A DNA stretch of 64,000 nt, from positions 5,359 to 69,358 of IMG/VR virus record IMGVR_UViG_3300027815_000009. The stretch is one strand, 5' to 3'. The stretch's first letter is position 1. Each line of letters begins with the position of its first letter. Position numbers and translations under genes: made by a program. Positions 705 through 19,786 of this stretch are shown here, piece after piece. This DNA comes from a virus (taxonomy: Duplodnaviria > Caudoviricetes). The notes under the pieces were generated by a model. The model did not search any database. It was not told where the DNA came from and was given only the letters and a program-made list of their open reading frames with translations.

Positions 705-1727
705 TCAAAAATTGCTTTTCGTTGTGGTCAACATGACACGCACCGCCGCGAGCGACGATGCGAGGTAACGCGCAACGCCGTCAAAACCCACCGTCTGCCG
801 GCCGCGGCCGCCCATGCCCATCGGGAAGGCGGTGTAGACCATCCGCGGGATCTCGATGTGCATCGCGAAGCTCTGCGCCCGCGTGAGCGTCACGACCATC
901 GCGCGCTCCGTCTGGTTGATGAAGTCCAGCTCCTCCGCGTTGTCCGCGAAGTCCAGCGTCCCGGAAACGCGGATCATCTGCGGCCCTTGAGTCCTCACGC
1001 GCGTGATCTCGTTCGAATTGTTGAGCGCCGCGATGCCTTCCAACTGGTTGTCCACCACCATCTGGAACGCTTCCAGCCGCGTGTTCGCCGCCCCCGCGAT
1101 CTGCACGGACGCGGTGTCGAACGTGAACGGCTCTGTCGAAGACCCCGGGAAGGTCGGCGTCGTCGCGCTGATCATGCTGCGCGTTTTCGCGAGCCATTCC
1201 GCCGTCGCACGAAGGTCCTGGTTCGGCGCGAGGGCCAAGGTCAGGCGGTTCAATTGAGCCCCGGCGTAGCGGTGGGAGCCGGAGCTGATGTTCCGGTTCA
1301 CCTCCATCGTGAACGGCTGCCGCGGAACCCCGTCCGCGAACTCGCTCTTGCAGCCCGTGAAGTGGAGCTGGAAGAGGTACCCGGAGAGGATCACCGTCTG
1401 GCTGATGTTGTTGAACGCCGCCTTGAGCAGGTGCCCGAGCGACACCGGGTGCCCGGCGTGCGTGATCGAACCCGCGGTGCGGCGCATCCCCGCGGAGTCG
1501 TCCGGTTCGTAGAAGCCGCCGAAGATGTTCCGCGTCGGGAATCGGTCGATGCTCGTCGAGATGTTCTCGCTCAAGAGCTCCACGTAGTCAGTGGCCGCGA
1601 CCGCCGTGCCCCACGTGGTTTCCTTGGCGACGCCGAGAAACCCGAGGTGCCCCTGCGCCCTGGCGCCCAGGGCCATTTCGGCCCAGAGCAGCATCGCGAT
1701 GGTGAGTGCCTTCAAGATCGTCTTCAT
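705..1727 (-). CDS. Major tail tube protein with 21-aa N-terminal leader
   Basis: GFLGVAKETTWGT start motif typical of tube proteins, beta-rich, synteny; AGGAGG SD before MKTILK. Confidence 0.8.
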   Translation of the reverse strand: MKTILKALTIAMLLWAEMALGARAQGHLGFLGVAKETTWGTAVAATDYVELLSENISTSIDRFPTRNIFGGFYEPDDSAGMRRTAGSITHAGHPVSLGHLLKAAFNNISQTVILSGYLFQLHFTGCKSEFADGVPRQPFTMEVNRNISSGSHRYAGAQLNRLTLALAPNQDLRATAEWLAKTRSMISATTPTFPGSSTEPFTFDTASVQIAGAANTRLEAFQMVVDNQLEGIAALNNSNEITRVRTQGPQMIRVSGTLDFADNAEELDFINQTERAMVVTLTRAQSFAMHIEIPRMVYTAFPMGMGGRGRQTVGFDGVARYLASSLAAVRVMLTTTKSNF

Positions 1728-1752
1728 GGCCTTGCCTCCTTCGTTGAAATTG

Positions 1753-2199
1753 TCACGTTGCTATCGCCGTCGCTTCGCCCACCATCCTCGTTTCGGCGAT
1801 CGCGTAAGACCCGGTCGTTTCGTCCCGGACGGAGATGAACTCCCCGCCCTCGATCCATCCGGACGCGAGCTTGTCGCCGATCGTCCGGTTGTTCATCAGC
1901 ACCAACTCGAGCGCCCCGACGAGTTCGTCACGCAGCGCCGCGGCCTTCTCGAAACTCATCGCGTACCCCATCGCCCAGGCGCTAAGCGTAACCTCCCACC
2001 GCGTGCGCTTCCCTGCGGCCAAAGGTTGCCCCGCAGATGGACGACGATTCCCGAGCGTCAGGACGATTGCCTTGCCGGCCCCGGAAAGATCGAAGGCCGG
2101 ATCCTCCTCGACGAAAACAGGGACACCGTCGAGCGAGGCGTCCGCCTCTATGATCGTCTTGAGCTGCGTCAGAAGCCCGTGATAGTTAACCGCTGCCAC
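1753..2199 (-). CDS. Tail terminator/completion protein (putative)
   Basis: 148 aa, immediately upstream of the tube gene. Confidence 0.5.
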   Translation of the reverse strand: MAAVNYHGLLTQLKTIIEADASLDGVPVFVEEDPAFDLSGAGKAIVLTLGNRRPSAGQPLAAGKRTRWEVTLSAWAMGYAMSFEKAAALRDELVGALELVLMNNRTIGDKLASGWIEGGEFISVRDETTGSYAIAETRMVGEATAIAT

Positions 2200-2767
2200 G
2201 GTCGGCCTCCATCTGGATCATCTCGTCCACCACCTCGACCACGAGCCGTTCGGCGGTCGCGGCGGTCGGGAGAACGGGGCGGGCGGGAATCCCGGGGTGG
2301 TTCACCTGCTTGCCGAAGTTCACCCACGCCCCGGATCTGAGCCGCGCGGCGAGCGTGCGAGCCTGTTTCACGCGGATGACGAACGGCCCCGTTCCGTGCT
2401 CGTGGATCTTGCCGAGCGGGATTCCGGAGGGAGTTTTCACGTTCGAACCAACCTCGACGAACGTGCGGTCATCCGTTTCGTAGTCAGTCCCAGGGCCAGC
2501 TCTGCCGCCAACGTCTCGAACGAACGACTGCTTGTACCGTCCGGTGTCTTGGAGCGGCTGATCGCCGCCACGCGCACGCATCGCCAGCGTGAGCGGGGAC
2601 AACGGCCGCCACGCCCCACGCCCCTTCGTCTTGAAGGACTCGTCAACGTAGGAAAGAAGGCGCAGCCCAATGACCTTGAGGATCACGCCTGGACCCACGG
2701 CCTTCGCCAGGCGTTCGATCTTCGCCCTGGCGGCAAGCGCCGTCACGTTGATCGTCACCGTGGTCAC
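2186..2767 (-). CDS. Virion morphogenesis protein (Mu gpG-like neck/tail completion)
   Basis: WRPLSP..LQDTGR..S, GSNV..YGxIHEHG, IPARPVL motifs of Mu G-like proteins. Confidence 0.75.
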   Translation of the reverse strand: MTTVTINVTALAARAKIERLAKAVGPGVILKVIGLRLLSYVDESFKTKGRGAWRPLSPLTLAMRARGGDQPLQDTGRYKQSFVRDVGGRAGPGTDYETDDRTFVEVGSNVKTPSGIPLGKIHEHGTGPFVIRVKQARTLAARLRSGAWVNFGKQVNHPGIPARPVLPTAATAERLVVEVVDEMIQMEADRGSG

Positions 2768-3270
2768 AGCCCCCTCCCGAGGCGGGCCGTCTCGATCGCG
2801 TCGAGCTTGTCCGTGTCCACAACCTGGTCGTACCGAGACCCCTCGTGGAAGGTTGGGTTCTGGGCCATCGTGGTCGACCAGATCTCACCGCGCTCCGTGG
2901 TCGAGACCCCGATCACGGCAAGCGAATTGTCCAGAAGCCCGACCTTGCCGGTCATGATCTGGTCGAGCAGCTTCTGGTCCATCTCGTGCTGGACCGCCAA
3001 AGGGGCTCGTCCCTGGACCGCCGGCGGGAAGTGGACGAGCCCGCGCTGGATGGCGATCCGGAAGATCGCCTCCCGAAGGGCGAGCGTCGCGACGATCGGG
3101 CAGCCGTTCGCGAACGGGAGCGCGTACTTGGCCGCGACCTTGGTGTTGATCTCGTTCTCGACCTGGTCGATGAACCCGGCCACGACGGCCGAGTTCAGCC
3201 CCGTCGTCTGCGCGGTGTTGATCGCGGGGTAGGCGGCGAAGACGCTGCCGGGGTTGGTGTAATAGCTCAC
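2764..3270 (-). CDS. Head-tail adaptor (Mu gp36/DUF1320-like)
   Basis: MSYYT start, EINTKVAAKYALPF motif, synteny. Confidence 0.65.
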   Translation of the reverse strand: MSYYTNPGSVFAAYPAINTAQTTGLNSAVVAGFIDQVENEINTKVAAKYALPFANGCPIVATLALREAIFRIAIQRGLVHFPPAVQGRAPLAVQHEMDQKLLDQIMTGKVGLLDNSLAVIGVSTTERGEIWSTTMAQNPTFHEGSRYDQVVDTDKLDAIETARLGRGL

Positions 3271-6200
3271 CAGTACCTCGTGTCCATCGGCGCCGCAGCA
3301 TCCCGCGCCCGGTTCGTGATCTCGGCGACGAAGTCATCCACCGTGGCGAACCGCGCTTTGGTCGTTCCGTTCAGATGCGCGTCGACCTTGTCCACGTTGA
3401 TCGAGAACGCGGAGTCGAACCCCTGAGCCAGAACCGCGTTAGCTTGCGAGTAATACTCGATCGGGTCGACGTTGGTGAAATGCCCTTTGCCGAGGAAATG
3501 CCGGCGGTAGAGCTCGACCACCTCCTCGCACGCCTTGCGGATGCCGGGCGTCACGCGGCTGCCGTTGTTCCGCAGCTCATGCCCAACCAGGAGCATCTTG
3601 TCGCGCATGATGAAATGCTTCTGGAGCAGTCTTTCGGGATACTTCTCCATGTCCGCCTCGAGCATCGGGAGGTTGCGGCCGAACTTCTTCTGCCGCCCGC
3701 TCTCGATCAGGTACCCGACGTGCGGGATGTGGACGTCGGGGAGAACGGTCACGGCGCCCGGCCCCATGTTCAAGCCCTTCTCGGGGTGCTCGTGGATCAT
3801 GCCGATGAACCGCATCCCGCTCCCGGTTTTCAGCGGGTTGCGGAAAAGCCTCACAGGCAGGTCGGCGCCGAAGTTCGCGTCCACGCTGAAGTGATGCTGC
3901 CGGATCGAATACCCGTCGAAGCCGTTCGGCCGGAGGTACTTCGCCACCTTGTCTGGCTGGAGCAGCTTCTCGTCCGTGTCGAGCCAGAGCCCCCAATCGC
4001 CACGGGCTTCCGAAAGCGCCTTGTTGCGCGGCGTCTCGAAACCGTCCGCCTTCGGGTCGCCCCCGGGGATGACGCGGATGTCCAGAAGGTAGGCGTGGGG
4101 CTTCCCGTCGAGCGGCACCCAGCGGTACTGGTCGATGATCCGGTGCGCCTCTTCCGAGAGCCCGCAGTCGGCGATGATCAGCTCGTCGGCGACGTGGACC
4201 AGGGACCTCAGGCACCAGTGCAGCGTCTCATCCGCCGCTTCCCCGCCGGCCATGATCATCGCGCTGACCGTCTGCCGCGGGCGCTGGATCGCGAGCTTGC
4301 GGTCCATGTCGATCGCGCCGATCTTCCCGCGACCGTCCGGGTGTACCTCGTACTGCACCACCCACCAGCCCAGGGCCTCGTCGGTTTCCGGGGAGTGCCC
4401 GAACGGCATCGAGCTGATCGAAAGCTGTGAACTGCGTCCCTTGACGTCCAGGATGTCGTGGAGGTCGTGGAGGTCGAACTCGCGGACGTGGGCGCGGTGC
4501 GGATACCGCCTGTAATCGGAATACTCCCACGGGCCGTGAGGGACGGTCATCCAGACGCGCCCGCCGTCCTTCACGCGCTCGTCCAGGGCGACGATCAAAG
4601 CTCCGGGATCGGGGACATGTTCCAGGACCTCCTGCGCCATGACGATGTCGTACTGCTCGCGCATCTCCGGCACGTCCGGGTCGGAAAGCCGGTCGAGGTC
4701 TCCAACCACCCCCCGCCAGCGGTCCGAGACACCGAGCTTCTCCGCGAACTGGTCCGCGAGCTGGATTCCACGGAGGTCGATGTCGATGCCCGTGATCCTG
4801 AGCCGCGGGATCTCCTTCAGGAGGTTGGTCGCATACCCGCCGTGCGCGCAGCCGTAGTCTAGGACCGAAAGCATCTGCCCCTCCGGGAGCGCGTCCACCT
4901 GCGCCTGGAGCCACTGCCGGACGGCCTTGTACCGCGGCTCCTGCGGCGACCAGTCGATCACGCGCGCGTCGTGCGTCGCGCCGATCCGCTCGTACTGGAT
5001 GCGCATCCCATCCGGCCGGTCCAGGAAGCCCCAGTCCTCCTCGATGCGCCGGCGCACGGGCGCGCTCGCCGCGTCGTCCGCGGGAAGCCTCTTGAGGCAC
5101 TCCTTCGCCCCGTAGATCTCGCTCCGGCGCCAGAAGTGGTTGGCCAGAGTCGCCAGATCCGCAGATCTGGAACGAATTTCGGCCTCCATCATCTCGCTCC
5201 ACTGCTTCGCCACGCCATCCCACCCCAGCGTGGCCGCGCGCGCCAGGCCGGCGGCCGACGCACGTCTGCGGGCCTCCGGATCGCGCATGTACCGCAGGCA
5301 GGCCTCGGCGAAGGCGTCCGCGTAGGCTGCCGTGTGGACGGGCTCCGCGATGAGGCGCCCGGCCTCCGGGGACAGGGTTTCCGGCAGCGCCCCGCGCGCG
5401 GAGGTGACCACGGGCATCCCGCACGCCTGGGCTTCCATGATGCTGATGCAGGAAATTTCATCGAAATCGGGCGCCAGCCGCGATGGCGTCGGGTAGACGT
5501 ACTGCCCCGCGGCGTGGTACGCGGTGTAGAGCTCGGACTTCGTGAGCGACCCGAGGGCCACGACGTTGCCCTTCATGCTCTCGGCGAGTGCGCGGCAGTG
5601 CCCGTAGAAGTCCGCCAGGTGCTCCACCGGGTTGTCGTAGGCCGAGACGAAGAGCTTGGCGTTTGGCTCCTCCTTCAGGATGCGCGGCATGATCTCCGCG
5701 AGCAGGATGTCCAGCCCGCGTTCGGGCCGCGCCGCGAAGAACATCGAGAGCGGATTCCTGGTGGTGGTCTTCAGGGCCTCGAACTCGGCCCGCGCCGCGG
5801 CGACGGCTTCCAGGTCGACCCCGTTGCGCGTCAGGAAGAGCTGCGAGTCCGAGAACCCGTAGACCTGCTTGTACTGCCCGCGCATGAACTCGGAGAGGAC
5901 GGCCACCTTGTCCCAGTTCCAGGACGTTCCACGGTACATCGGCTCGGCGCGTTTCATCGCGAGGTCGTGGCACCAGAGGATCGTCAGCTTCGCCTGGTTG
6001 TACCCCTGCAGCATGTCCGGCGCCCGTTGAACGATGCACACGTCATGCGGGGTGTATTCGACCCACGCCCTGAAATTTTGCAGCGGAATGTAGTCAACGT
6101 CAGCGCAAGAGACCATCTTCTCCGTATTGCAAAACACAGTCACGCTGTGTTTCAGTTTTGCCAAGGCGCGCGCGAGATAATACCCCGCCGATTCTGAGCC

Positions 6201-6281
6201 TCCCAAGCTCTGTCGGTTGAAAGTTTCCCCGTTGAAAGGAAGCCCAGGCACGGCCATAGCAATCGTCAAAGGGCGGCTCAT
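3267..6281 (-). CDS. Multidomain glycosyltransferase: GT4 (GT-B) + class I SAM methyltransferase + GT2 (GT-A)
   Basis: GGSES, RNGVD, EISCISIMEAQACGMPVVTS (GT4); VLDYGCAHG and EVLEHVPDP (MTase); WLDTDE and RFIGMIHE (GT2); start MSRPL overlaps upstream stop (ATGA). Confidence 0.85.
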   Translation of the reverse strand: MSRPLTIAMAVPGLPFNGETFNRQSLGGSESAGYYLARALAKLKHSVTVFCNTEKMVSCADVDYIPLQNFRAWVEYTPHDVCIVQRAPDMLQGYNQAKLTILWCHDLAMKRAEPMYRGTSWNWDKVAVLSEFMRGQYKQVYGFSDSQLFLTRNGVDLEAVAAARAEFEALKTTTRNPLSMFFAARPERGLDILLAEIMPRILKEEPNAKLFVSAYDNPVEHLADFYGHCRALAESMKGNVVALGSLTKSELYTAYHAAGQYVYPTPSRLAPDFDEISCISIMEAQACGMPVVTSARGALPETLSPEAGRLIAEPVHTAAYADAFAEACLRYMRDPEARRRASAAGLARAATLGWDGVAKQWSEMMEAEIRSRSADLATLANHFWRRSEIYGAKECLKRLPADDAASAPVRRRIEEDWGFLDRPDGMRIQYERIGATHDARVIDWSPQEPRYKAVRQWLQAQVDALPEGQMLSVLDYGCAHGGYATNLLKEIPRLRITGIDIDLRGIQLADQFAEKLGVSDRWRGVVGDLDRLSDPDVPEMREQYDIVMAQEVLEHVPDPGALIVALDERVKDGGRVWMTVPHGPWEYSDYRRYPHRAHVREFDLHDLHDILDVKGRSSQLSISSMPFGHSPETDEALGWWVVQYEVHPDGRGKIGAIDMDRKLAIQRPRQTVSAMIMAGGEAADETLHWCLRSLVHVADELIIADCGLSEEAHRIIDQYRWVPLDGKPHAYLLDIRVIPGGDPKADGFETPRNKALSEARGDWGLWLDTDEKLLQPDKVAKYLRPNGFDGYSIRQHHFSVDANFGADLPVRLFRNPLKTGSGMRFIGMIHEHPEKGLNMGPGAVTVLPDVHIPHVGYLIESGRQKKFGRNLPMLEADMEKYPERLLQKHFIMRDKMLLVGHELRNNGSRVTPGIRKACEEVVELYRRHFLGKGHFTNVDPIEYYSQANAVLAQGFDSAFSINVDKVDAHLNGTTKARFATVDDFVAEITNRARDAAAPMDTRYW

Positions 6282-7033
6282 GACACACCCCCAACAACCG
6301 CGTTCCGCATCGCAGTCTTTTTGCGACGCAGGTCCCACGCGATGACCATTTTTGCGCGGGTCTCCTTGGTGTGTGGCCCACTCTTTTTCCCTTGTTGCGC
6401 GGCGCTGATCTTGGCTCTAGTTTCCGGAGAAAGAATTTTTCCTCGGTTCGATGCGCCGATCTTCGCTTTGTGTTCTACGCTCTTTGGCCTTCCGCGCCCA
6501 GCGATAGACATGCGTTCTCGCGTAGTTGCGCTCAAAGGAACACCCAGGTGCGAGGCCGACATGCGCGCCCGCACTTCTGCCGTGAATGGCTTGAGGCGCT
6601 TCGCTTCTTTTAGCGCCGCGCGGTGTTTCGCGCTCTTAGGTTTCCCGCGTTGCCACGCGGATAATTTTTCAAGTGTTTCTTCGGAAGGCCTCATGCCAAG
6701 ATGCGAACGGCCCATCTTCGCCGCCACTTCCGGCCTCAGGGTCGGCGACGTCTGGCCGCCGAACGTCACGTTGTACCCGTTCGGCGTGAGCGTTCCGAAC
6801 ACGCGAATGGCGCGGATTTCGGCGGCTGGCAGGTCGTCGTGATTCATGAATGCAAGGATTTGCTTGTCCGGCGCCCCGTGCTTTCGTATTGCCCGCGTTA
6901 ACGGCAAATCGGATCCAGATTTCGCCGCCGACAAATGGCCAGCGAATCGTGCCTCGATGCCCCTGGTGGTAATGCCGATGTAGGACTTCCCGTTCGGGAA
7001 GTTCAATTTATACAGCGTGCCTGCTTGGGTCAT
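6278..7033 (-). CDS. Free-standing GIY-YIG homing endonuclease with NUMOD3 repeats
   Basis: LYKLNFPNGKSYIGIT, GYNVTFGG, repeated S.ETRAKMS.A motifs. Confidence 0.85.
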   Translation of the reverse strand: MTQAGTLYKLNFPNGKSYIGITTRGIEARFAGHLSAAKSGSDLPLTRAIRKHGAPDKQILAFMNHDDLPAAEIRAIRVFGTLTPNGYNVTFGGQTSPTLRPEVAAKMGRSHLGMRPSEETLEKLSAWQRGKPKSAKHRAALKEAKRLKPFTAEVRARMSASHLGVPLSATTRERMSIAGRGRPKSVEHKAKIGASNRGKILSPETRAKISAAQQGKKSGPHTKETRAKMVIAWDLRRKKTAMRNAVVGGVS

Positions 7034-7102
7034 GTCTCGATCTTCCTGTCGATGATCATGCGGTTGAGGAAAGTTTCTTGGGAGCGCGCGTCGCCGCCCT
7101 CC

Positions 7103-7444
7103 CTAGCGCGGCTTCGTGACAAGGGTGAGCGTGCGGTTGTCGTGCTGGAGCGATCCAGCGGCCGTGACGATCTCGAACCGCGCGTATGCCGGCGAGTCCA
7201 TGCCCGCCGGCCAGCCGATCCAGCGGCTCCCGACGCCAACGGCGAGCTGGAAATCCCCGGACCCGGGCTGCCGCGTCTCGAGCATCCGGACGAAGTTCCC
7301 GCTGACCGTGTCGACATTCCCCTGAACCGCCAGCGTGCCGCTCGCGAGGAGCGTCGGGCAGAAGATCGCCTCGAGCTTGCGCTGCCTGAGGTCTACGTTC
7401 CCGCTGACCAGGAACCCGGAGGCGATGACCGCGTATTCGAGCAT
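7103..7444 (-). CDS. Putative virion protein
   Basis: 113-aa beta-rich ORF in the head module. Confidence 0.45.
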   Translation of the reverse strand: MLEYAVIASGFLVSGNVDLRQRKLEAIFCPTLLASGTLAVQGNVDTVSGNFVRMLETRQPGSGDFQLAVGVGSRWIGWPAGMDSPAYARFEIVTAAGSLQHDNRTLTLVTKPR

Positions 7445-7459
7445 CGGTCCATCGTCCCG

Positions 7460-8098
7460 TTATGCGCTGCCCGGGCGCTTGGTTTCCCACATCACCACGA
7501 CGTCGACGGGTCGCGCGCGGCCGTCCGCCCAGCCGATCGTGAAGTAGCTGCCGTCGCTGATCGTGTTCACCTTCAGCCGCGACGGATCTTTGGCCGCGAT
7601 CTCCCACATCACCACGGCGCCGGAAGCGATCACCGTCAGGCTGTTCGCGGTCGCCAGAGAGAAGGAAACGCCGTTGACGATCGAGTCGACGCGCAGCGCC
7701 TGCCCGGAGGTGATGGCATTCGGGCTCTCGAAGGTGGCTTGGACGATGTCACCGCTGTAGATCGCGATCGTAGACGCCGGCGCCGTGGAGAGGCCTGAGG
7801 CGATGGCCGTGCGGCCCACGAACGTGTAGCCCCCGGCGAGCGCTACCTGCGCCGTCAGCCCGATCAGGCTGTCGCTCGCCACGTTCGAGGTGCTCACCAC
7901 CTGGGACGCAGACCCGCTCGAGAGCGTGGTGCGGCCGGCGAACTGCGCCCCGTGCGAGTTCGTCCGGATGAAGCTCGGCCCCTTGAAGAACGGCGCGAAC
8001 AGGAGCTCCAGCGGCTTCATCGGGCCGACCTGGCAGCCCAGCGCCCCCTCGGTCCAGAGGGCGAGGACGGCGGCGAACAGTGCGAGCGTGCGTTTCAT
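7460..8098 (-). CDS. Putative virion (head decoration/fibre) protein with 21-aa leader and internal duplication
   Basis: AAGGA SD; leader MKRTLALFAAVLALWTEGALG-C; repeats FAGRTTLSSG/FVGRTAIASG, LRVDSIVNG/LKVNTISDG, VVMWE x2. Confidence 0.6.
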   Translation of the reverse strand: MKRTLALFAAVLALWTEGALGCQVGPMKPLELLFAPFFKGPSFIRTNSHGAQFAGRTTLSSGSASQVVSTSNVASDSLIGLTAQVALAGGYTFVGRTAIASGLSTAPASTIAIYSGDIVQATFESPNAITSGQALRVDSIVNGVSFSLATANSLTVIASGAVVMWEIAAKDPSRLKVNTISDGSYFTIGWADGRARPVDVVVMWETKRPGSA

Positions 8099-8123
8099 AT
8101 GCGGTTCCTTTTCGGCGGGATTA

Positions 8124-8336
8124 TCAGTGCGCCCCGGCGCGCGCCGCGGTGCGGGGAGTTTCCTTCCCGCCTCCGTTGCGGTTCTGGAGCACCGTGTTCA
8201 TCTCTTCCGGCTTGCTGAACTCGTCCAGGGACTTGAACCCGGCGTCTTTCGCCACCGAGTGCCAGACCGTGAGCGGCCAGTCGTGCAGGACGCCCGCCTT
8301 GAATCGGCCGGCGTCCTTCGTGAGTCTGCGGAGCAT
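8124..8336 (-). CDS. Small hypothetical protein downstream of the capsid gene
   Basis: AAGGAG SD, MLRRLTKDAG; typical post-capsid small gene. Confidence 0.5.
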   Translation of the reverse strand: MLRRLTKDAGRFKAGVLHDWPLTVWHSVAKDAGFKSLDEFSKPEEMNTVLQNRNGGGKETPRTAARAGAH

Positions 8337-8391
8337 TCTTTCTCCTTTGCAGGTTGCGAGGCTGCCCCGTGGTGGCGGCAGCCCCCTTGGG

Positions 8392-9411
8392 TTACAGCGT
8401 CGAACCCACCAAATACGCAAGTTGCGCCGCGACGATCTTCTCGTCCTGGTAGTAGCCGACCTCAACGACCTCGGCCTTCTTGCCCGGGTCCGGGTCCATG
8501 TACGTCCGCGCCTGCATCGGGGCCGGGGCACCATCGGGCGTCCAGCGGAAGCCGAGGCCGAACGTGGCCGTCTCCTCCGACACGGCGTCCTGGTCGACGT
8601 AGCAGAGCAGCGCGTTGTTGCCCCAGATGTTCGTCATCGAACTCGTGCCGCCCTGTTTCGCGTTCTCGCGGATCGCGTCGGCGACCAGGATGCGGCCCAC
8701 GTCGAAGACCTCCTGGAGCTGCAGCATCGTGAGGAACCCGCCGTCCGTGTACTTGTAGAGGTCCAGCAGGACGGGGTGGCGCCGCACGATGCGGTGCGTG
8801 TCGTAGTCCAGCAGCAGTGTGTTGGCGCGGATGCCGGTGTTGTTCCGGATGAACGCGTGCCCCGTGCTGACGTCGGCGATCGGGTCCGAATTCGCGTAGT
8901 TCGACCACCGGCTGCCCGCGGCGAGGGTGACGCCCGACCCGATGTTCGAGATCGACGTGACCTTATTCGCGATGCGCACCTCGTAGTCGGCGGCGAGCTG
9001 GCTGACGACGAACCGCGCGGTGTTCTGCCGCAACCGCAAAGCCACCATCGCGTTCGCGAGGTCTTCGATCGAGTTGTCGCCCGCCAGCGCGTAGTTGATC
9101 GCGTTATACTGATCCGAGCTGACGCTGAACGAGACGCGCCGCGGCGGCGTCTTCGGCGCCCGGACGGTGGACTGCGGAATGCGCAACCAGTCCGCCTTGG
9201 TGATCGTCGGGTACATGCCGGACTGCTTCGGCACGGGAACGACCGGGAAGAGCGCCGGGCCGACGAAGCCCCCGCGGCTGAACGCCATCACCGCGACGTT
9301 CGAGAGCGGAACGTCGACGTAAACGTCGCGCTGACCGCCGAGGTTCGCGGCGAGCGCCCCCTCGGCGTATGCCGACATAGCGGCGAGCAGGAAGGTGAGG
9401 ATCTTTTTCAT
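8392..9411 (-). CDS. Major capsid protein (HK97 fold, gpE-like) with 21-aa leader
   Basis: DVYVDVPLSNVAV, LFPVVPVPKQSGMY, IWGNNALLCYV and DEKIVAAQLAYL motifs; AGGAG SD before MKKILT at 9411. Confidence 0.85.
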   Translation of the reverse strand: MKKILTFLLAAMSAYAEGALAANLGGQRDVYVDVPLSNVAVMAFSRGGFVGPALFPVVPVPKQSGMYPTITKADWLRIPQSTVRAPKTPPRRVSFSVSSDQYNAINYALAGDNSIEDLANAMVALRLRQNTARFVVSQLAADYEVRIANKVTSISNIGSGVTLAAGSRWSNYANSDPIADVSTGHAFIRNNTGIRANTLLLDYDTHRIVRRHPVLLDLYKYTDGGFLTMLQLQEVFDVGRILVADAIRENAKQGGTSSMTNIWGNNALLCYVDQDAVSEETATFGLGFRWTPDGAPAPMQARTYMDPDPGKKAEVVEVGYYQDEKIVAAQLAYLVGSTL

Positions 9412-9436
9412 GGTTACGTTTCTCCTGACGTTGACG

Positions 9437-9901
9437 TTAGGCGACATCGGCCCACTTGATGGGCGGGAAGATCATCGCGGTGACGATCTCCCCAGCGGTG
9501 GTCGCCGCCTCCATCGCGCGCCCGATGACCACGTCGCCCGAAACCGCGTCGATCACGTGCCCCGAAGAGTCGTAGCTGATCGGCGCGCCGGCGGTGATCG
9601 TTCCCCCGCCGAATACCTTCGAAAGGCCGAACAGGCAGACCTGGGCGGCCTCGTTCACGTACGGCTTGTTCTGGAGGATCCCGATCGGCCCTTTCAGGGC
9701 GGCGCCCTTGAGGACCTCGGAGCAGATATTCACCGTGGTCGCGGCGGCGAAGCGCACCACCCCGTACTGGTGGTGGTTCAGGCTCGCCGCGGCGGTGAGC
9801 CCGGGCCAGTTGACCTGTTCTCCGAACTCCGCCCGGCAGGCGAGGAGCGACTCGGCGAAAGCCGCCAGGGCGGCGGAGAAGAGCTTGGTGATGAGTTTCA
9901 T
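9437..9901 (-). CDS. Capsid decoration/cement protein with 21-aa leader
   Basis: GILQNKP..EAAQV..GLSKV..GGTITAGAPI..DSSG.V...IGRAMEAATTAGEIV cement-type motif; AAGGAG SD before MKLITK. Confidence 0.75.
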   Translation of the reverse strand: MKLITKLFSAALAAFAESLLACRAEFGEQVNWPGLTAAASLNHHQYGVVRFAAATTVNICSEVLKGAALKGPIGILQNKPYVNEAAQVCLFGLSKVFGGGTITAGAPISYDSSGHVIDAVSGDVVIGRAMEAATTAGEIVTAMIFPPIKWADVA

Positions 9902-9941: not shown

Positions 9942-11459
9942 CTACTGGCGCCCGGCGGCCTGCTGCTGGTTATAGCGCTCCGCGAGCTCGGGTTCCGCCG
10001 AAAGCACCGCCTCCATGGCTTCGGCGTAGTCCTTGCTCTTGCCGTCGCGCATCCGGGCCTTGGCTTTTTCGTCGATCTCGCGGCCAGCGTCGTCGCCAGA
10101 CGGGCCTTCCTCGCGCCGGCGCACGCCGCCATCAGTCACGACTTCGAAAAGCTTCTTCGAGGAGGCGTTGATCTGTCCGACCAGCGAGTCGACCACCTCC
10201 GTGATCGTCTTCTCGCTTTCGGTGCGCTTACCGTCCTTCACGGCGAAGTGCTTGACCTTGACGGCGGGCGAAGCCAGGGCGTGGGTGTAGATCGCCTCAA
10301 GGTCCTCGCGGAAGGCGATGACCTTGCACTTGGCGACGCGCTCGGTGACCTCGCGGGCGCGGTCCTTCTCCATCAGGAGCGAGACCTGCGCGCGCAGCCG
10401 CTGGTTCTCCTCGTTGGTGGCCGCGGCCTCCTGGAGCGACGCGATCTGCGTGCCGAACTCGGCGATGTCCTGCTCGAACTTGGCGATCTTCGCCTTATCC
10501 TCGTCGCCGCCCTTCTTCTTCATCTCGTCGAGCTGCGCTTGGAGGGCGGCCTTCTTCTCTTGGAGTTCCTTGATCGTCATGGCGTCGTACTCCTTCTGCT
10601 TTGTTGAATTGAGCCGTTCAATTGCCTTAGCTAACTGCTTTTTGGTTTGTTCAAGCCGACTGCGTGGAAAACCAGCATCTCGTTCCCTTTCCAAAACCCG
10701 ATTCAATCTTTCTACTTCCTGACCTAATTCCTCTTTAGACAAAGGTGTAGAGCCAGGTAGCGAAGGGGGTTCTCTCAAACTTGTTTTCCCAGCTTTTACT
10801 GCGTCCTCGATTGATTGCCCCTTCTTCAAAAATACATGCCGACCATTCACTGTTATCCACTTCCCCTCACCAAACTCGGCGACCTGATCTTCCAACCCTT
10901 CGACCTCGCGCTCCAGCGCGGCGGTCTCCGCAGCTTCGGTCAGCGCAGCAACCCGCTCCGTGAGCGAGTCGATGATGGCCTGCTTCTGGATGTCCAACGT
11001 CTGCTCGCAGGCGGCAACGGAGTCGAACCCGTCGGCCGCGAACTCCATCTTGTGGAGCGGCGTCAGCCCAGCCACGGCCGGAACGTCGGCGCCGAGCAGG
11101 GCCACGGCTTTCAGCGCGCGCCGGAAGCTCTTGCCCCCACGTTTGAGGTTGAAGTATATTTCCGCTGAAACATTCGGGTAGGTTCTTTTGCGGATGGCAT
11201 CCACGACAGAGTCGTGCATGTCTTCAAAATCCGCCACCAGCTTATCGCCAACTCGTTTCAGATTTTTAACCCAGCCATAAGCCGGAGCGCCTGGCTGGTC
11301 TTTTGTGTGTCCAACTTTCAGCGCCGGACGGAAGTCTAATTCATTGAACGCAGACACCATATCATTGATGTCTTGTTCCGTGTATGAATCCCCGTTATGG
11401 ATTCCGGCACGGAAAATTTCAACACCCCGAATGGCGTTGCTATGAGCTGATTTGTCCAT
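9942..11459 (-). CDS. Mu gpI-like prohead protease/scaffold fusion
   Basis: VEIFRAG, PALKVGH, AYGWV, VSAEI, LKAVALLG..PAV.GL motifs; coiled-coil C-terminus; probable internal scaffold start at 10580 (AAGGAG SD, MTIKELQEKK). Confidence 0.85.
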   Translation of the reverse strand: MDKSAHSNAIRGVEIFRAGIHNGDSYTEQDINDMVSAFNELDFRPALKVGHTKDQPGAPAYGWVKNLKRVGDKLVADFEDMHDSVVDAIRKRTYPNVSAEIYFNLKRGGKSFRRALKAVALLGADVPAVAGLTPLHKMEFAADGFDSVAACEQTLDIQKQAIIDSLTERVAALTEAAETAALEREVEGLEDQVAEFGEGKWITVNGRHVFLKKGQSIEDAVKAGKTSLREPPSLPGSTPLSKEELGQEVERLNRVLERERDAGFPRSRLEQTKKQLAKAIERLNSTKQKEYDAMTIKELQEKKAALQAQLDEMKKKGGDEDKAKIAKFEQDIAEFGTQIASLQEAAATNEENQRLRAQVSLLMEKDRAREVTERVAKCKVIAFREDLEAIYTHALASPAVKVKHFAVKDGKRTESEKTITEVVDSLVGQINASSKKLFEVVTDGGVRRREEGPSGDDAGREIDEKAKARMRDGKSKDYAEAMEAVLSAEPELAERYNQQQAAGRQ

Positions 11460-12138
11460 TTATCACGGGATGAGAATGTGGGAGACGAGAGAAGGCCCAG
11501 TTCCAACGTACAGCGGTCGCGATCGCAAGCGACATCCTCATCTTTTCCTTGTGTTGATCGGTTTTTTTCTTGCCGCGTAAACCATCAGCGATGCGTTTGC
11601 GCCACTCTTCAGAATGATGCCGGCCCCTTAATGGCGCGATCCTGCGCTCGACAAATTCAGGAGAATTGATTCTCGCCTGACCCATCTTCAGGGCCGCGCG
11701 ATGCTGTTCTGAAATCGGTTTTCCGTACATCGGGTTGAGGCACCCTCTTTTCGTGGAAGAGATTTTTTCTCGTACCGACGAAAGAGTCGACGGATTGAAA
11801 TCACCGCCAGGGGTCATGTTGTAGCCGTGTTTGCCGTAGGTACCAAATACGCGCACAGCGCGTTGTTCGGCAGCTAGCAGATCTTGCCTTTCGATGATCG
11901 CCAACAAAACAAGAGAAGGGGCGCCGTATTTCCTCCATGCGCGATTTACAGCACAATTCAATCCTTCTTTCGTGGCCTTGGCGTGGCTCGCGTACCTTTC
12001 CTGCGCGGTTTTTTTTGTGACTCCGATATAGGACTTCCCGGATGCAAAATCCAGACGGTAAAGCTGACCGGCTTTGGCGCGAGCTTCGGCGGGTTCGCCT
12101 TTCCAGGTAGGCTGGTACTTTTCGGCGGAATATGGCAT
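11440..12138 (-). CDS. Free-standing GIY-YIG/NUMOD3 homing endonuclease
   Basis: LYRLDFASGKSYIGVT, GYNMTPGG, NPMYGK, HSEEWRKRI motifs. Confidence 0.85.
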   Translation of the reverse strand: MPYSAEKYQPTWKGEPAEARAKAGQLYRLDFASGKSYIGVTKKTAQERYASHAKATKEGLNCAVNRAWRKYGAPSLVLLAIIERQDLLAAEQRAVRVFGTYGKHGYNMTPGGDFNPSTLSSVREKISSTKRGCLNPMYGKPISEQHRAALKMGQARINSPEFVERRIAPLRGRHHSEEWRKRIADGLRGKKKTDQHKEKMRMSLAIATAVRWNWAFSRLPHSHPVINGQISS

Positions 12139-12213: not shown

Positions 12214-12492
12214 TCAGCGGCCCCGGATCGGGGGCAGATTGCGCTTCAGCTTCTCGTCGCGCCAGCGCTTCTCGGCTGCTTCCGTGGCGAGCTTGGTGCG
12301 CTGCGCCTGAGTCATCCCGTCCATCCTGGCCTGCCCGCCCAACGACCCGAGAGCGACGGCGGCCGGGTTCTTCTCCCGCCAGCGCCCGCACTTCGGGCAG
12401 TTGAAATGCCCGCGCCCGGAGGCCGAACCGACTTCCTCCAGCGCACTCGGAGCGCCGCAGGACGGGCAATGGCGCGTCTCAGCTTCGCTCAC
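12214..12492 (-). CDS. Small Zn-ribbon protein with KNPAAVALGxLGG helical motif
   Basis: CPSC...CPKC; GTG start overlaps upstream stop. Confidence 0.5.
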   Translation of the reverse strand: MSEAETRHCPSCGAPSALEEVGSASGRGHFNCPKCGRWREKNPAAVALGSLGGQARMDGMTQAQRTKLATEAAEKRWRDEKLKRNLPPIRGR

Positions 12493-12974
12493 ACGAACTT
12501 CCCTCCCTTCGCGCCGCGGCCGAACGGGAAGTTCCACGCCTGCCCACGTCCCCAGATCGCGCCCATGATCCGGTCGTCGGTCGTCGCGACCGCCAGGGCG
12601 GCACGCCAGCTCGCGAGGCGCGGGAAGATCCGCCGGCGCGAGAGCGGCCGGTTCGGATCCATGCCCTTCGCCCGATGGACCTGCGCGTACCAGGCCGAAA
12701 GGATCAGGCCCATCATCGCGGCGAGCGCCATGTTCTCGTCGTACGGCTTGCCCCTGTTGCACCGGCGGATGTGGGCGGCGCACAGGCCCGCAAGTTCGGC
12801 CACCCAGGCGACCGAATCGGTGGAGGCGTGTCCCTTGTACGGTCCGCGCGTCTGAACCGGCGTGCTGTGCTTGCCGATCAAGTCCTGGACGATCCCGAGC
12901 CACGTGACGATGCTGATCTTCGGGACGCTGGTCCTCGTGGAGCCGCCTCCGATCCGCTTCTTCCGTTTGTTCAT
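12489..12974 (-). CDS. Hypothetical protein
   Basis: AAGGAAG SD, MNKRKK start, coupled overlaps. Confidence 0.5.
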   Translation of the reverse strand: MNKRKKRIGGGSTRTSVPKISIVTWLGIVQDLIGKHSTPVQTRGPYKGHASTDSVAWVAELAGLCAAHIRRCNRGKPYDENMALAAMMGLILSAWYAQVHRAKGMDPNRPLSRRRIFPRLASWRAALAVATTDDRIMGAIWGRGQAWNFPFGRGAKGGKFV

Positions 12975-13225
12975 GGCGTCTCTTCCTTCTTTCGCCACCA
13001 GATCAGAGGCATGGGGTCATCCTGATACTCGCATTTCTCGCAGCCGTATTCGCGGAACGCGCCGTGTCCTTGTTCCTCAATGATCTTCACAATGAACAAG
13101 AATTCTCGGTACGCATAGCGCCCGAAGAACCAGCGGCAGAGGAATTTGATGATCGCCAGCCGTTCGTTCAACGCCCGCACGAAATCCAGCGCCGGCATGT
13201 AAATTCTGGTGAGGTCTGGAATCAC
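12971..13225 (-). CDS. Hypothetical protein
   Basis: GTGA/ATGA coupling with neighbours. Confidence 0.4.
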   Translation of the reverse strand: MIPDLTRIYMPALDFVRALNERLAIIKFLCRWFFGRYAYREFLFIVKIIEEQGHGAFREYGCEKCEYQDDPMPLIWWRKKEETP

Positions 13226-14040
13226 GGCACCTCCATGTGGCAGGCCGAGCAGCCCTTCTTCTCTGTTCCCCACGGCTTGAGCATCAGCTTCTCCGGGTCG
13301 TCCAGCACGTGCCCGATCACGCTCGAGCCGTCCGCGTCCAGGCAGCACGTCGCCACGCGCCCGTCCACCAGCACCACGCACCAGCCGGAGCGCAGGAACT
13401 CACACGGGATGCGCGGTGCCGAAACCATCGGCGTCCAGTTCTCCTGATACCCGGCCCAGTTGAACGCCGAATCTGCAAATGCCGTGTTTCGCCCGGCGAG
13501 TAGCCCGGCCTTCCGCGCAGCGACGATCGCAAGCGCCGCTTTTTCCGGGCGGTGGAGGCTGACGAAGATCGCTGGGTGGTAGGGCTTCAGCGCCTCGCAC
13601 ATCGCGTCGTCCAACAGCAGGCCGTTCGTCGTCAGGACCAGCGGGCGCTGCGGCCCTATCGTGGCGCGCGCCGCGGCGACCATCTCCACGAACCGCGGAT
13701 GGAGCATCGACTCGCCGATCCCGGTCAAGCTGAGCTCCGTCTGCGTTCCCTGCCGAACGAAGAACCGGACGAGGTCGAGGGACGCCTCGAACGTGTCCCA
13801 GTCCATGTCCACCTTCGCGCGCGGGAGCTCCGGAAAATGCGGACAGTACGTGCAGCGTAAATTGCATCGAGTCGTCAGCTCTATTTGATGAACGTCCCGG
13901 ACGGGGCGCGGATATTTGGCGAACCCACCAGCCGGCTGCGCGTGTAGTTGGATCGCGCGCCCAGCGGCTACCTGAATCGCATGATCTGCGGCAAGTGCGG
14001 CATCATCTGGGTTTGAAAGATCCAGTTTGCGTATGGTCAT
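13222..14040 (-). CDS. Radical SAM protein with SPASM/twitch-like C-terminus
   Basis: CNLRCTYC motif; GIGES, TTNG; C-terminal CEF...VATCC...CSAC. Confidence 0.85.
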   Translation of the reverse strand: MTIRKLDLSNPDDAALAADHAIQVAAGRAIQLHAQPAGGFAKYPRPVRDVHQIELTTRCNLRCTYCPHFPELPRAKVDMDWDTFEASLDLVRFFVRQGTQTELSLTGIGESMLHPRFVEMVAAARATIGPQRPLVLTTNGLLLDDAMCEALKPYHPAIFVSLHRPEKAALAIVAARKAGLLAGRNTAFADSAFNWAGYQENWTPMVSAPRIPCEFLRSGWCVVLVDGRVATCCLDADGSSVIGHVLDDPEKLMLKPWGTEKKGCSACHMEVP

Positions 14041-14042
14041 GA

Positions 14043-14909
14043 TTAACCCCCGCAAGCCATCGCGTGGCTGCCGGTCTCGGGCGACGCCACGTTGTCGTGG
14101 TATTCGGTCGGTTCATCCGGCGCGTTCGGATCGTAATGCAGGTTGATCTTCGCTAGCAGCGCCTCATGCTCCCGCCCGTAAATCTGCGCGCCACCGCGCA
14201 TCATCGCGAACATCGCCAGCGGCGAGTTGCCCCACCGCTGATAGAAAAGCCGTTCGTCATGCGCCAGGGCCTTCGCGTGCATTTCCGCGTGCGCCGACCC
14301 CGCGCTGTTGTTCGTCACGCTCCCGAGGTGCCAGACGTGCTTGCGGCAGGAACGATAGGCACGAAGCCCGCGCTCGTACAGCCGCAGGATCAGGTCCGAG
14401 TCCTGGTAGACGCGCAGGTACGCCTCGTCGTACCGCTCGCCGCGCCGGAACATCGTGAAGGGCGAGAACATCCCCTCGACGACGAGATCAACGGGGCCGG
14501 CCGGGCCGATCGTCGCGTTCGGTTCGAACGCCGATAGGGAGGCGGCGCCGCAATCCTTACGATCAGCGAAGAGGCGCAGCAGCTCCGCATCCCATCCCGA
14601 CGACGGGATGATGTCCGTTCCCGTGAAGAGGATGAAGTCCCCCGAGGCGGCGTCGATCCCAGAGTTCGCCTCCTTCACCCCGCCGATGGGCTTCGGGAAG
14701 CGGATGTACTTGTCGATCTGCAGCCCAACCAGCGGGCCGGCCGGGTCGAAGCGGTCGCTCCCGGTCTCGATCACGATCAACTCGTAGCCTTTGTCCGCGG
14801 CCTGGATGCGGTGCATCTTGATCGCGAACGCGGTGAGTTCTTCCAGGAACGGATTCGGTGCCATCGTCATCATCAGGACGGAAATATTTGGTTTCTTCTC
14901 GCTCGTCAT
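14043..14909 (-). CDS. GT2-family glycosyltransferase
   Basis: LIVIETGS, NSGIDAASGDFILFTGTD, YDEAY...QDSDLILRL, VWHLGS. Confidence 0.8.
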   Translation of the reverse strand: MTSEKKPNISVLMMTMAPNPFLEELTAFAIKMHRIQAADKGYELIVIETGSDRFDPAGPLVGLQIDKYIRFPKPIGGVKEANSGIDAASGDFILFTGTDIIPSSGWDAELLRLFADRKDCGAASLSAFEPNATIGPAGPVDLVVEGMFSPFTMFRRGERYDEAYLRVYQDSDLILRLYERGLRAYRSCRKHVWHLGSVTNNSAGSAHAEMHAKALAHDERLFYQRWGNSPLAMFAMMRGGAQIYGREHEALLAKINLHYDPNAPDEPTEYHDNVASPETGSHAMACGG

Positions 14910-16240: not shown

Positions 16241-16747
16241 TCATTCGTCTGCCTCCACGAAATGCATGACGGCCCCTTGAAGCCGCTGCGCGGCGCGCAC
16301 CACCGCCGTCGGCGTCACGTCGACCCCAAGGTTCACGCCAGCGCGCCGCGCGACTTCGGCGGCGTATTCGGCGCACTGCCAGATCGAGTCCGCGCCGGGC
16401 TTCAAGAGGCCCAGGCCGGCCAACACCGCCTGCCACTGCGAGTAGGGCTCGCCCACCTGGCGCAGCGCCCAGGCCTCGACCTCGTCTTCCCACGCGGCGC
16501 GCAGCGGCACCCAGTAGAACGGCAGCAGGCGCGAAAGGGGGAAAATCCTCACGCCTGCGCTGACGGCCTCGAGGACGAAGACTCGGCCGGCGATGACCCA
16601 GGCGACCCCGACGTGACAATACTCCGACCGCGTGAACATCCTGACCAATTGAATCTTGAGATCATAAAACGACCCCCACCGATCATGCCCCCACGCGAGG
16701 ATGTCTCCGGACCGGATGTGCTCGCGTGCTTCGGTTTCGTATTTCAC
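16241..16747 (-). CDS. Permuted papain-like NlpC/P60 enzyme (YaeF/YiiX-like)
   Basis: SGDIL, YCHVGVA..V.EA, GEPYS, QCAEY: His before Cys, the circularly permuted order. Confidence 0.75.
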   Translation of the reverse strand: MKYETEAREHIRSGDILAWGHDRWGSFYDLKIQLVRMFTRSEYCHVGVAWVIAGRVFVLEAVSAGVRIFPLSRLLPFYWVPLRAAWEDEVEAWALRQVGEPYSQWQAVLAGLGLLKPGADSIWQCAEYAAEVARRAGVNLGVDVTPTAVVRAAQRLQGAVMHFVEADE

Positions 16748-16968
16748 ACGTCTCCTTTCGGCACCTCGGCCCAATTATCGCCCGGCGCGCAATCCCCATC
16801 GCGCACAGCCCGGAATAATTCTTGAACCACGCCGACGTTTGGCACATCGATCAGGAACCAGAGCGCGCCGGACTGGCTCATGACCGGATGAACCTGCGCT
16901 ACAGGACAAGGCGGTTTCGACGCGCATCCGGCGAGCGACAGCATCAGGATGACCGCAGCGAATTTCAA
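16744..16968 (-). CDS. Small lipoprotein
   Basis: TTG start, KFAAVILMLSLAG-C lipobox. Confidence 0.55.
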   Translation of the reverse strand: MKFAAVILMLSLAGCASKPPCPVAQVHPVMSQSGALWFLIDVPNVGVVQELFRAVRDGDCAPGDNWAEVPKGDV

Positions 16969-17342
16969 TTCAGCACCCTGTGGCCGCGGCCGACGAGGCA
17001 GTTTCGGATGATCTGCGCTTCGCTCTGCGCCCCGCCCGCGGCTCCGTAGGCCGAGCCCATCACGGCCGTCCCGCGCGCCGTGGCGCCGCAATCGCGTCCG
17101 CCGAACGCAGCGCAGAGGGCGAAGCCGAGCCCGGCACCGATCACCGCTCCGGCTGTCGCTGTGGTTCCAGGTCCCGCCACGCGTTCGGCTTGCGCGCGGC
17201 ACTCCGCGAGGTCATGCTGGTAATTGGCGTCCGGTTGATCGACGACCGGCCGGAAAGCGCATGCGGTCAAGGCGACGATCACCGCGAGAACGATGATCGT
17301 CAGCGCCAGCGTGATCAAGCGATCCTTCAACGTCGGCTTCAT
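16965..17342 (-). CDS. Glycine-zipper lipoprotein
   Basis: LTA-C lipobox; GAVIGAGLG...GAAGG zipper; paired cysteines. Confidence 0.7.
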   Translation of the reverse strand: MKPTLKDRLITLALTIIVLAVIVALTACAFRPVVDQPDANYQHDLAECRAQAERVAGPGTTATAGAVIGAGLGFALCAAFGGRDCGATARGTAVMGSAYGAAGGAQSEAQIIRNCLVGRGHRVLN

Positions 17343-17370
17343 CCGTCGATCCTTTCCGAATCCGCGCATC

Positions 17371-19390: not shown

Positions 19391-19786
19391 CTACCCGGCC
19401 TGTTTGATCGTCATGGAGAATTCCGAGACGCGCAGCAGATCGCCCTTGCGCACGAAATCGTCTTCCTCAAGCTGGATGATCGCGCCCTTGCCTTTCTGCC
19501 CCACGTCGCACTCGAAGATCACATTCCCGTCCGAGTCCATCGCGCGCGCCCACGTCGCCCGTCCCTTCCCGGGAGCATCGAGTTCCGGGGTTATGCCGGA
19601 GAACTTCACCACGCCTCCGGTGAATTCGACGGCCGCCGGATTGTTGAACCGCAGCCGTGCCAACAGCGCACCACCCTCCTGATCATAAAACTCCAAGGCC
19701 CCGGCCGCCCCGGTGGCATCAAGCGCGGAGCAAAGCCCGCGCGCCGCCGCGGCCAATCCGAGATCGGTGATGCGGAGTTCAGCCAT
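19391..19786 (-). CDS. Putative virion structural protein
   Basis: 131 aa; G.ATWAR..DSDG..IFECDVG motif seen in phage structural genes. Confidence 0.5.
   Translation of the reverse strand: MAELRITDLGLAAAARGLCSALDATGAAGALEFYDQEGGALLARLRFNNPAAVEFTGGVVKFSGITPELDAPGKGRATWARAMDSDGNVIFECDVGQKGKGAIIQLEEDDFVRKGDLLRVSEFSMTIKQAG

Follow-up and report, generated by a model that had tools for sequence, protein, structure and literature searches.

Why should proteins of the head and of the tail of one phage begin with the same short peptide? The question is raised by a 64,000-nucleotide stretch of DNA from a tailed virus (Caudoviricetes), positions 5,359 to 69,358 of the IMG/VR record IMGVR_UViG_3300027815_000009, which we refer to as the window. 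Exactly four genes of the window begin with a leader of 21-23 amino acids (aa): those for the tail tube protein (tube), the major capsid protein (MCP), the cement or decoration protein (dec) and a beta-rich protein of the head module that has no family name and is here called head-X (Table 1). A first-pass annotation had pointed to this leader and offered three explanations, namely export with cleavage by host signal peptidase (SPase) I or II, a propeptide cut after Glu17 by the head protease of the phage, and a recognition tag for modification enzymes. The answer that we favour, with no better than even confidence, is another one: the leader would be a propeptide that is cut behind L-[A/G] by a 150-aa peptidase of the M48/M56 type, encoded by the phage and predicted to be anchored in the membrane and to face the cytoplasm.

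The four open reading frames (ORFs) are all on the minus strand and start where the first-pass annotation had placed them, with a Shine-Dalgarno-like sequence before each ATG (AGGAGG, AAGGA, AGGAG and AAGGAG). The gap-free alignment of the leaders at M1, K2, an aromatic residue at position 15, E17, L20 and G/A21 was also borne out, as was their equal length within the window. A permissive regular expression, applied to all ATG, GTG and TTG starts in six frames, matched only these four genes, a fifth match being an in-frame TTG within the tube leader. When the window was scanned with a weight matrix trained on the leaders of related phages alone, the window excluded, the four leader sites ranked 1-4 among 90,789 six-frame positions, with scores of 35.9, 31.0, 30.7 and 12.0, and the next-best position scored 4.7 (mean -55.8, standard deviation 15.2). 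The four leader DNAs share a mean column identity of 68% with no long identical run, and the invariant columns are limited to conserved codons. Conservation is therefore at the protein level, as had been proposed, and is not the product of recent gene conversion; on the same identity value we ruled out a repeat at the DNA or RNA level among the four 5' ends. Family-typical sequence begins right behind the leader, since position 2 of the Phage_tube_2 profile falls on residue 27 of tube, position 8 of phrog_1005 on residue 28 of MCP and position 12 of Phage_cement_2 on residue 52 of dec, in agreement with the starts of leaderless orthologues described below. Translation from a downstream start, such as Met18 of tube, is unlikely, the upstream peptide with its motif being kept in 10 distinct tube orthologues. 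In an AlphaFold2 (AF2) model of head-X the leader is a helix (residues 2-21, predicted local distance difference test score, pLDDT, about 90) followed by a flexible linker.

About 170 loci of related phages were collected, and MCP, dec, head-X and tube were located in them by profiles of the mature parts; start codons were set by rule (an upstream start with a Shine-Dalgarno sequence) and then checked by eye. The relatives are all metagenomic contigs, and the absence of a gene is only as reliable as the coverage of the contig. An N-terminal extension is present in almost all of the 120 MCP homologues closest to the window protein (57-98% identity). In total, about 50 uncultured relatives yielded 118 distinct leaders (44 from MCP, 34 from dec, 30 from head-X and 10 from tube). 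Their lengths run from 15 aa (MCP of L093, dec of L023) to 48 aa, with medians of 23-25, and the equal length seen in the window does not hold among the relatives. What is constant is the end: the motif [YFW]-[AVST]-[EQT]-x-[AV]-L-[AG] closes 116 of the 118 leaders, in four unrelated protein families, mostly 1-5 residues ahead of the mature domain as given by the start of leaderless orthologues. In a profile of the 118 leaders anchored on the last aromatic residue, position 0 is Y in 63%, F in 22% and W in 11% (aromatic in 97%); A, V, S or T follows at +1, E (50%), Q (20%) or T (9%) at +2, a variable residue at +3, A (50%) or V (21%) at +4, L (88%) at +5, A (69%) or G (21%; A/G 90%) at +6, and A, C, L or S at +7. 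The conserved E17 of the first-pass annotation is thus a property of the four window leaders but not of the leaders of their relatives.

Ahead of the motif, positions -12, -9, -5 and -2 are recurrently polar, and we read this 3-4-3-4 spacing as a narrow stripe of polar residues along a helix that is hydrophobic elsewhere. The longest uncharged run has a median of 10-13 residues and is shorter than 8 in 14 of the 118 leaders, the 15-aa leaders of L093 and L023 among them; in 19 leaders the hydrophobic core is weak (best 8-residue hydropathy below 1.6). Directly behind the motif a Cys is found in 28 of 116 leaders, A, L and S being as common at that place. This Cys, present in most head-X and about a third of dec orthologues and almost never in MCP or tube, could reflect a P1' preference, a modification site or a disulphide.

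Orthologues without a leader start exactly where the leader would end: dec with M-AEFG, head-X with M-T-T-PLE and tube with M-S-QGH (more generally, leaderless tubes start S-Q-G-H/F), and leaderless MCPs start a few residues before R-D-V-H. Such orthologues occur outside the leader-bearing clade (L002, L003 and others), and inside it the leader is missing from dec and head-X of L045, from head-X of L093, and from dec, head-X and tube of L012, L044, L100, L173 and L174, as far as the contigs cover them. At the level of sequence comparison, this shows a real, translated, conserved and modular leader with a fixed end motif, which is common to head and tail proteins and probably removable.

In a tree of MCPs (97 rows, quick IQ-TREE search), the leader-bearing proteins form a single clade of 40 rows (SH-aLRT 99). 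The automatic rule also flagged a handful of rows beyond this clade, in which the upstream peptide is without the motif, and the other outside rows are leaderless. The group of L012, L044, L100 and L173 is nested within the leader clade (support 97-98), and L174 is a separate, unresolved early branch of it. We then looked for genes associated with the leader by clustering the co-oriented ORFs of 28 non-redundant loci, with no families preselected, and comparing 15 phages that have the leader on several proteins with 10 leaderless ones. Three families appeared only in the former: a radical S-adenosylmethionine (radical-SAM, rSAM) enzyme (14/15 against 0/10), an M48-like peptidase (13/15 against 0/10) and a small Zn-ribbon protein (13/15 against 0/10). 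The association with a GT2 glycosyltransferase was weak (12 of 15 against 3 of 10). A further family with counts of 13/15 and 0/10 mapped to the MCP gene read in another frame and was discarded as spurious, and a link to the 1023-aa enzyme that fuses GT4 and GT2 glycosyltransferases with a methyltransferase was rejected because leaderless relatives also have it. Co-occurrence with the M48 gene, a check that the first-pass annotation had asked for, thus proved a useful lead. Its two misses belong to a subclade in which extra genes place the peptidase more than 10 kb upstream of MCP, and walking the contig recovered it there (L167:7873-8337, E 7e-56).

Phages that bear the leader on MCP only separate the three families. 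We found no M48-like gene in L170, a Logan contig with the gene order of L012, where the whole interval from MuF to the protease was read; none in the whole 57-kb record of L100, which includes MuF; and none in L174, whose fully covered interval from portal and MuF to the protease holds three tiny ORFs only. The L012 group retains the rSAM and Zn-ribbon genes, while L174 has neither in its covered head module. Given that the L012 group has these two genes without M48, only the peptidase, among the three clade-specific families, follows the leaders of dec, head-X and tube; in the loci examined, no phages other than those with several leader-bearing proteins were found to have the M48-like gene. 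The end of the leader changes with it. MCP leaders of five phages without the M48 gene keep the aromatic-x-E/Q triplet, but the small residues in front of the boundary are gone: a small residue stands at +4 in 0/5 (36/41 in phages with M48) and A, G or S at +6 in 0/5 (39/41), these five phages representing two lineages and not five independent events. The leader is hence co-distributed with the peptidase, and residues that look like a cut site co-vary with its presence, which fits [AV]-L-[AG] being the determinant that the peptidase reads.

The candidate peptidase matches the Pfam family Peptidase_M48 (PF01435) with 26.6 bits, above the cut-off of 20.3. Residues H93, E94, H97, E128, A131 and D132, which compose the gluzincin signature HExxH...ExxAD, do not vary among 30 homologues, and neither do W12 and N16 of the N-terminal helix. 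Its AF2 model (pLDDT 95.4) consists of an anchor helix (residues 2-19), a three-stranded sheet and three helices, including those that carry HExxH and the distal Glu. Foldseek gave as top matches the transmembrane and zinc-protease domain of BlaR1 (TMq 0.58-0.60, probability 1.00, E 2e-3) and, further on, the M48 peptidase 3c37, BepA, ZMPSTE24 and selecase, with modest E-values, so that model and matches together describe a gluzincin fold with membrane anchoring. A strongly basic stretch lies behind the anchor helix, and by the positive-inside rule the catalytic domain should face the cytoplasm. BlaR1, too, sits in the membrane and cuts a protein of the cytoplasm. The M48-like family of the peptidase numbers 110 closely related sequence clusters (all E <1e-38), several of them on contigs that equal leader-MCP contigs in length; members outside the phage clade, sought as an independent test, were not found, scans of viral contigs giving clade members only. 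A search by regular expression only for the S26-type catalytic motif of a signal peptidase found none in the plausible ORFs of the window.

We propose that the products of the four genes are precursors, each headed by a modular helix of 15-25 residues that is hydrophobic except for its polar stripe, and that this helix would be removed just behind L-[A/G] by the zinc peptidase, itself held by its single N-terminal membrane anchor. Until then, the greasy helix would hold capsid, cement, head-X and tube subunits at the inner face of the membrane, or would at least keep them incompetent for assembly, and cleavage would free them to assemble. The cleavage, its exact site, the association with the membrane and the purpose are what we infer. 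The four presumed substrates are the most abundant, self-assembling or surface-forming proteins of the particle. A wider version of the proposal, in which the enzyme is a general virion leader peptidase that gates the assembly of membrane-tethered head and tail precursors from the cytoplasmic face and is distinct from both prohead proteases and the host protease Prp (see below), is conceivable but doubtful. Once released, the hydrophobic peptides, of which there would be on the order of a thousand for each particle, might also act by themselves, for instance by damaging membranes or by timing lysis.

Several observations weigh against this proposal. The co-distribution goes back to few independent events, one gain and two lineages without the gene, and rSAM and the Zn-ribbon protein show a gain pattern nearly identical to that of the peptidase. 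The persistence of the MCP leader in phages without M48 shows that this leader has a role or a removal route independent of the peptidase. The topology of the enzyme is predicted from the positive-inside rule and from a fold match at modest TM-scores, and membrane association of the leaders is read from their composition alone, about 15% of them being weakly hydrophobic. In the L012 lineage we also observed a gene for Peptidase_C93, a transglutaminase-like cysteine protease that is not present in the other loci (L170:11100-11516, L012:1156-1572, L100:14823-15158), and a MuF with a HEIGH motif in a C-terminal extension (L170:3989-5722); both are possible substitute enzymes in this M48-less lineage.

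Other readings of the leader have to be weighed against the same data. We consider it rather unlikely that the leader works like that of a ribosomally synthesised and post-translationally modified peptide (RiPP), the helix recruiting rSAM, and perhaps GT2 or the methyltransferase, to modify the four proteins before it is removed. Removal could again be the task of the M48-like peptidase, and this reading overlaps with our proposal and differs from it in the purpose of the leader. It draws on the adjacency of the rSAM, GT2 and M48 genes and on the clade-specific occurrence of rSAM, whose core comes closest to SPASM/twitch maturases, with scores that all stay well under the cut-offs of the families; the best NCBIfam match of GT2 is the mycofactocin glycosyltransferase MftF, and the aromatic-x-E/Q triplet and the frequent Cys after the leader could be modification sites. 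Strict co-occurrence of maturase and leader, however, is not what the loci show. The rSAM gene is kept in the lineage of L012, L100 and L173, where dec, head-X and tube are leaderless, whereas L013 has the leader on all four proteins with no rSAM found within 10 kb, and L174 has an MCP leader with no rSAM in the covered head module. The rSAM gene is specific to the leader clade, and a functional link to the leader, as suggested by the first-pass annotation, is possible but less well supported than that of M48. Moreover, neither rSAM nor its neighbours gave a match to PqqD or a RiPP recognition element (RRE) in Pfam or NCBIfam, short rSAM orthologues start right at the catalytic core, and leaderless relatives retain the large GT4-methyltransferase-GT2 enzyme. 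It is unlikely as well that the helix is permanent and serves oligomerisation or membrane contact in the particle or during assembly. This would suit the confident AF2 prediction of a free-standing helix on a flexible linker and the MCP leaders that remain in phages without M48, but particles that expose a hydrophobic helix of 20 residues in hundreds of copies on capsid and tail would be expected to be sticky, orthologues drop the leader protein by protein (L045, L093, L012, L174), and the conserved small residues at the boundary resemble a cut site and are gone where the peptidase is absent.

The two remaining explanations assign the leader to known proteases. In T4- and phiKZ-like phages several head proteins carry short N-terminal propeptides ending in Glu, and here the head maturation protease might likewise cut after Glu17 inside the prohead, the leader being a capsid-targeting tag. 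Glu is indeed the commonest residue at +2, and MCP leaders in phages without M48 call for another protease or another role. A tag of this type would nevertheless have a conserved Glu at the cut site and cargo that enters the prohead, and this is not the pattern found: half of the leaders have no E, the best-conserved positions lie 3-4 residues past it, the tail tube never enters the prohead, and leaderless relatives carry the same protease-scaffold gene (126/166 loci). We regard this reading, the second of the three offered by the first-pass annotation, as quite improbable. That the leaders are genuine Sec or lipoprotein signals, cut by host SPase I or II for export or for tethering on the periplasmic side, is very improbable, even though the window copies look textbook, with an n-region of M-K-K, an h-region of about 13 residues, small residues at -3 and -1 and, in two of the four proteins, a Cys at +1; the median uncharged run of the relatives is in keeping with this layout. 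SPase I signals show no position-specific conservation beyond -3/-1 and have extracytoplasmic cargo, whereas this motif recurs in 116/118 leaders, some of which have the short uncharged runs and weak cores described above, and the cargo belongs to a tailed particle that packages DNA and whose portal, terminase, MuF, adaptor and tape-measure proteins are leaderless. Since only four virion proteins are tagged, assembly in the periplasm is excluded. Nor do the leaders look like lipoboxes cut by SPase II: the Cys is optional, and E, Q or T, including the charged E, stands 5 residues before the site, while the true lipoprotein of the phage (16965-17369) combines an L-T-A-C box with an uncharged core of 19 residues. 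Finally, the leader tracks a peptidase of the phage and not the machinery of the host.

The first 25 kb of the window (G+C about 63%) form the late, minus-strand morphogenesis module of a long-tailed phage with a Mu-like head, whose genes are listed in Table 1.

Table 1. Genes of the morphogenesis module, from upstream to downstream, with assignments from profile matches (Pfam, phrog) and additional ORFs mentioned in the text.
Feature	Position	Strand	Remarks
Terminase	22765-24639	-	
Mu-type portal	21176-22783	-	
MuF	19779-21233	-	Block of accessory genes comes next downstream
Gly-zipper lipoprotein (L-T-A-C lipobox)	16965-17369	-	Overlapped by out-of-frame ORF with second lipobox (L-A-G-C); the two together span 16744-17369
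Cys-rich protein, 113 aa	15387-15728	-	Weak DUF6527 match; directly upstream of M48-like gene, 4-base overlap with its start
M48/M56-type minigluzincin, 150 aa	14938-15390	-	Predicted membrane-anchored; candidate leader peptidase
GT2 glycosyltransferase	14043-14909	-	Between rSAM and M48 genes
rSAM enzyme	13222-14055	-	SPASM/twitch-like Cys-rich C-terminus
Small Zn-ribbon protein (CxxC...CxxC)	about 12214-12490	-	After rSAM gene; overlapped by longer ORF 12489-12998 in another frame, with high G+C at third codon positions (GC3)
GIY-YIG/NUMOD3 homing endonuclease	11440-12138	-	
Head maturation protease/scaffold (phrog_976)	9942-11459	-	Rival candidate for MCP leader processing
Cement/decoration protein, dec (Phage_cement_2)	9437-9901	-	ATG at 9901; leader 9839-9901; Cys22 codon 9836-9838
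Major capsid protein, MCP (phrog_1005, lambda gpE-like)	8392-9411	-	ATG at 9411; leader 9349-9411
Small gene between MCP and head-X		-	
head-X (beta-rich protein of head module)	7460-8098	-	Leader 8036-8098; Cys22 codon 8033-8035
113-aa gene downstream of head-X		-	GIY-YIG endonuclease follows
GIY-YIG/NUMOD3 homing endonuclease	6278-7033	-	
GT4-methyltransferase-GT2 fusion, 1023 aa	3267-6338	-	
Mu gp36-like adaptor		-	First of three genes before tube
Tail completion protein		-	Second of three genes before tube
148-aa gene		-	Third of three genes before tube
Tail tube, tube (Phage_tube_2)	705-1727	-	Leader 1665-1727

For head-X, profile searches returned no family match. The protein exists in a short, one-domain form of about 105 aa and a long form of about 190 aa, to which the window copy belongs. 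The insert of the long form (window residues 87-169) is a beta-sandwich resembling the C-terminal domain of phage depolymerases and tailspikes (VIA Z 9.4 and 8.2); a fold search meant to name the protein recognised only this inserted tailspike-type sandwich. Head-X is probably an exposed accessory protein of the head module.

Other features of the module are recorded here as observations. The Zn-ribbon protein has a conserved, basic tail (K-N-P-A-A-V-A-L-G-S-L-G-G-K-A-R) and no family match; it was considered as a candidate partner that might bind the leader. Both homing-endonuclease genes lie within the head module, and relatives are without them at these places. The lipoprotein with its overlapping lipobox ORF looks like a spanin-type or other lysis or envelope gene pair, which suggests a diderm host; labels of metagenome-assembled genomes (MAGs) attached to relatives (Binatia, Patescibacteria) are not reliable for host assignment. 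In the relative L167 (2995-7167) MuF is a 1390-aa fusion with Pfam matches to an ADP-ribosyltransferase toxin domain, Acb1, an intein and a type IB topoisomerase, and similar MuF/Acb1 fusions occur in L014 and L170; these are probably anti-defence cargo that is ejected.

Proteolytic maturation of tailed phages is seen as an affair of the prohead, carried out by proteases of the HK97, T4 and herpesvirus types, with the host protease Prp as the exception. The clade described here, at least about 50 uncultured phages from groundwater and soil, with Hainich groundwater wells recurring as a source of the relatives, places one leader on the capsid, the cement, an extra surface protein and the tail tube, and its small membrane zinc peptidase was found in no leaderless relative examined. 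If the link between the two is true, the enzyme would represent a new class of virion maturation protease and the leader a new way of controlling the assembly of self-polymerising subunits. There is also a consequence for annotation: signal-peptide predictors will probably label these capsid and tube proteins as secreted or as lipoproteins, which would mislead both annotation and predictions of host interaction.

We found no paper on this leader or on a phage maturation peptidase of the M48 type, and nothing in the literature on a leader common to capsid and tube proteins beyond Prp and T4-type tags. The sharing of a leader between head and tail, which the first-pass annotation did not recognise as described, has a precedent all the same. 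In Staphylococcus, Prp removes a shared N-terminal motif from the capsid and scaffold proteins of 80alpha, with a function that is still unclear, and the motif is also found on the major tail protein of phi13 (PMC5744158). Prp itself belongs to the host; it is a cysteine protease that acts in the maturation of ribosomal protein L27 as well, and the phage motif copies the 13-14-aa extension of L27, which is cut between F and A (PMC5744158); the motif of our leader differs from that site. The two systems are alike in that a short motif is shared by non-homologous virion proteins and in the use, here proposed, of one dedicated protease outside the prohead class. They differ in the enzyme, since the candidate here is phage-encoded, zinc-dependent and membrane-anchored, in the leader, which is a longer hydrophobic helix with another motif, and in the substrates, the scaffold/protease protein being leaderless here and cement, head-X and tube being tagged.

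With the propeptides of T4-like and phiKZ/SPN3US-like phages the leader shares its portability, as an N-terminal peptide on several virion proteins that is removed in maturation (removal being predicted in our case). The tags of those phages have a terminal Glu, mark proteins of the head interior and are cut off within the prohead by its protease, whereas here Glu is not conserved, tail and external capsid proteins are tagged, and the tag tracks a different peptidase. Signal peptides of the Sec/SPase I pathway and of lipoproteins have in common with many of the leaders an n/h/c-like layout, small residues at -3 and -1 and sometimes a Cys at +1; they are set apart by the position-specific motif of the leader, its short or polar copies, its cytoplasmic cargo and its linkage to a phage metallopeptidase. 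On the side of the enzyme, the HExxH...ExxAD signature and the predicted fold match those of BlaR1/MecR1 (M56), the M48 membrane gluzincins HtpX and Ste24, and the soluble minigluzincin selecase, and BlaR1 resembles the proposed peptidase also in its seat in the membrane and in the cytoplasmic location of the protein it cuts. The phage protein is far smaller than these gluzincins, with one anchor helix, a minimal catalytic domain and no sensor domain, and it is set apart from them by its gene lying in a head-morphogenesis module and by its proposed substrates, the precursors of the virion itself.

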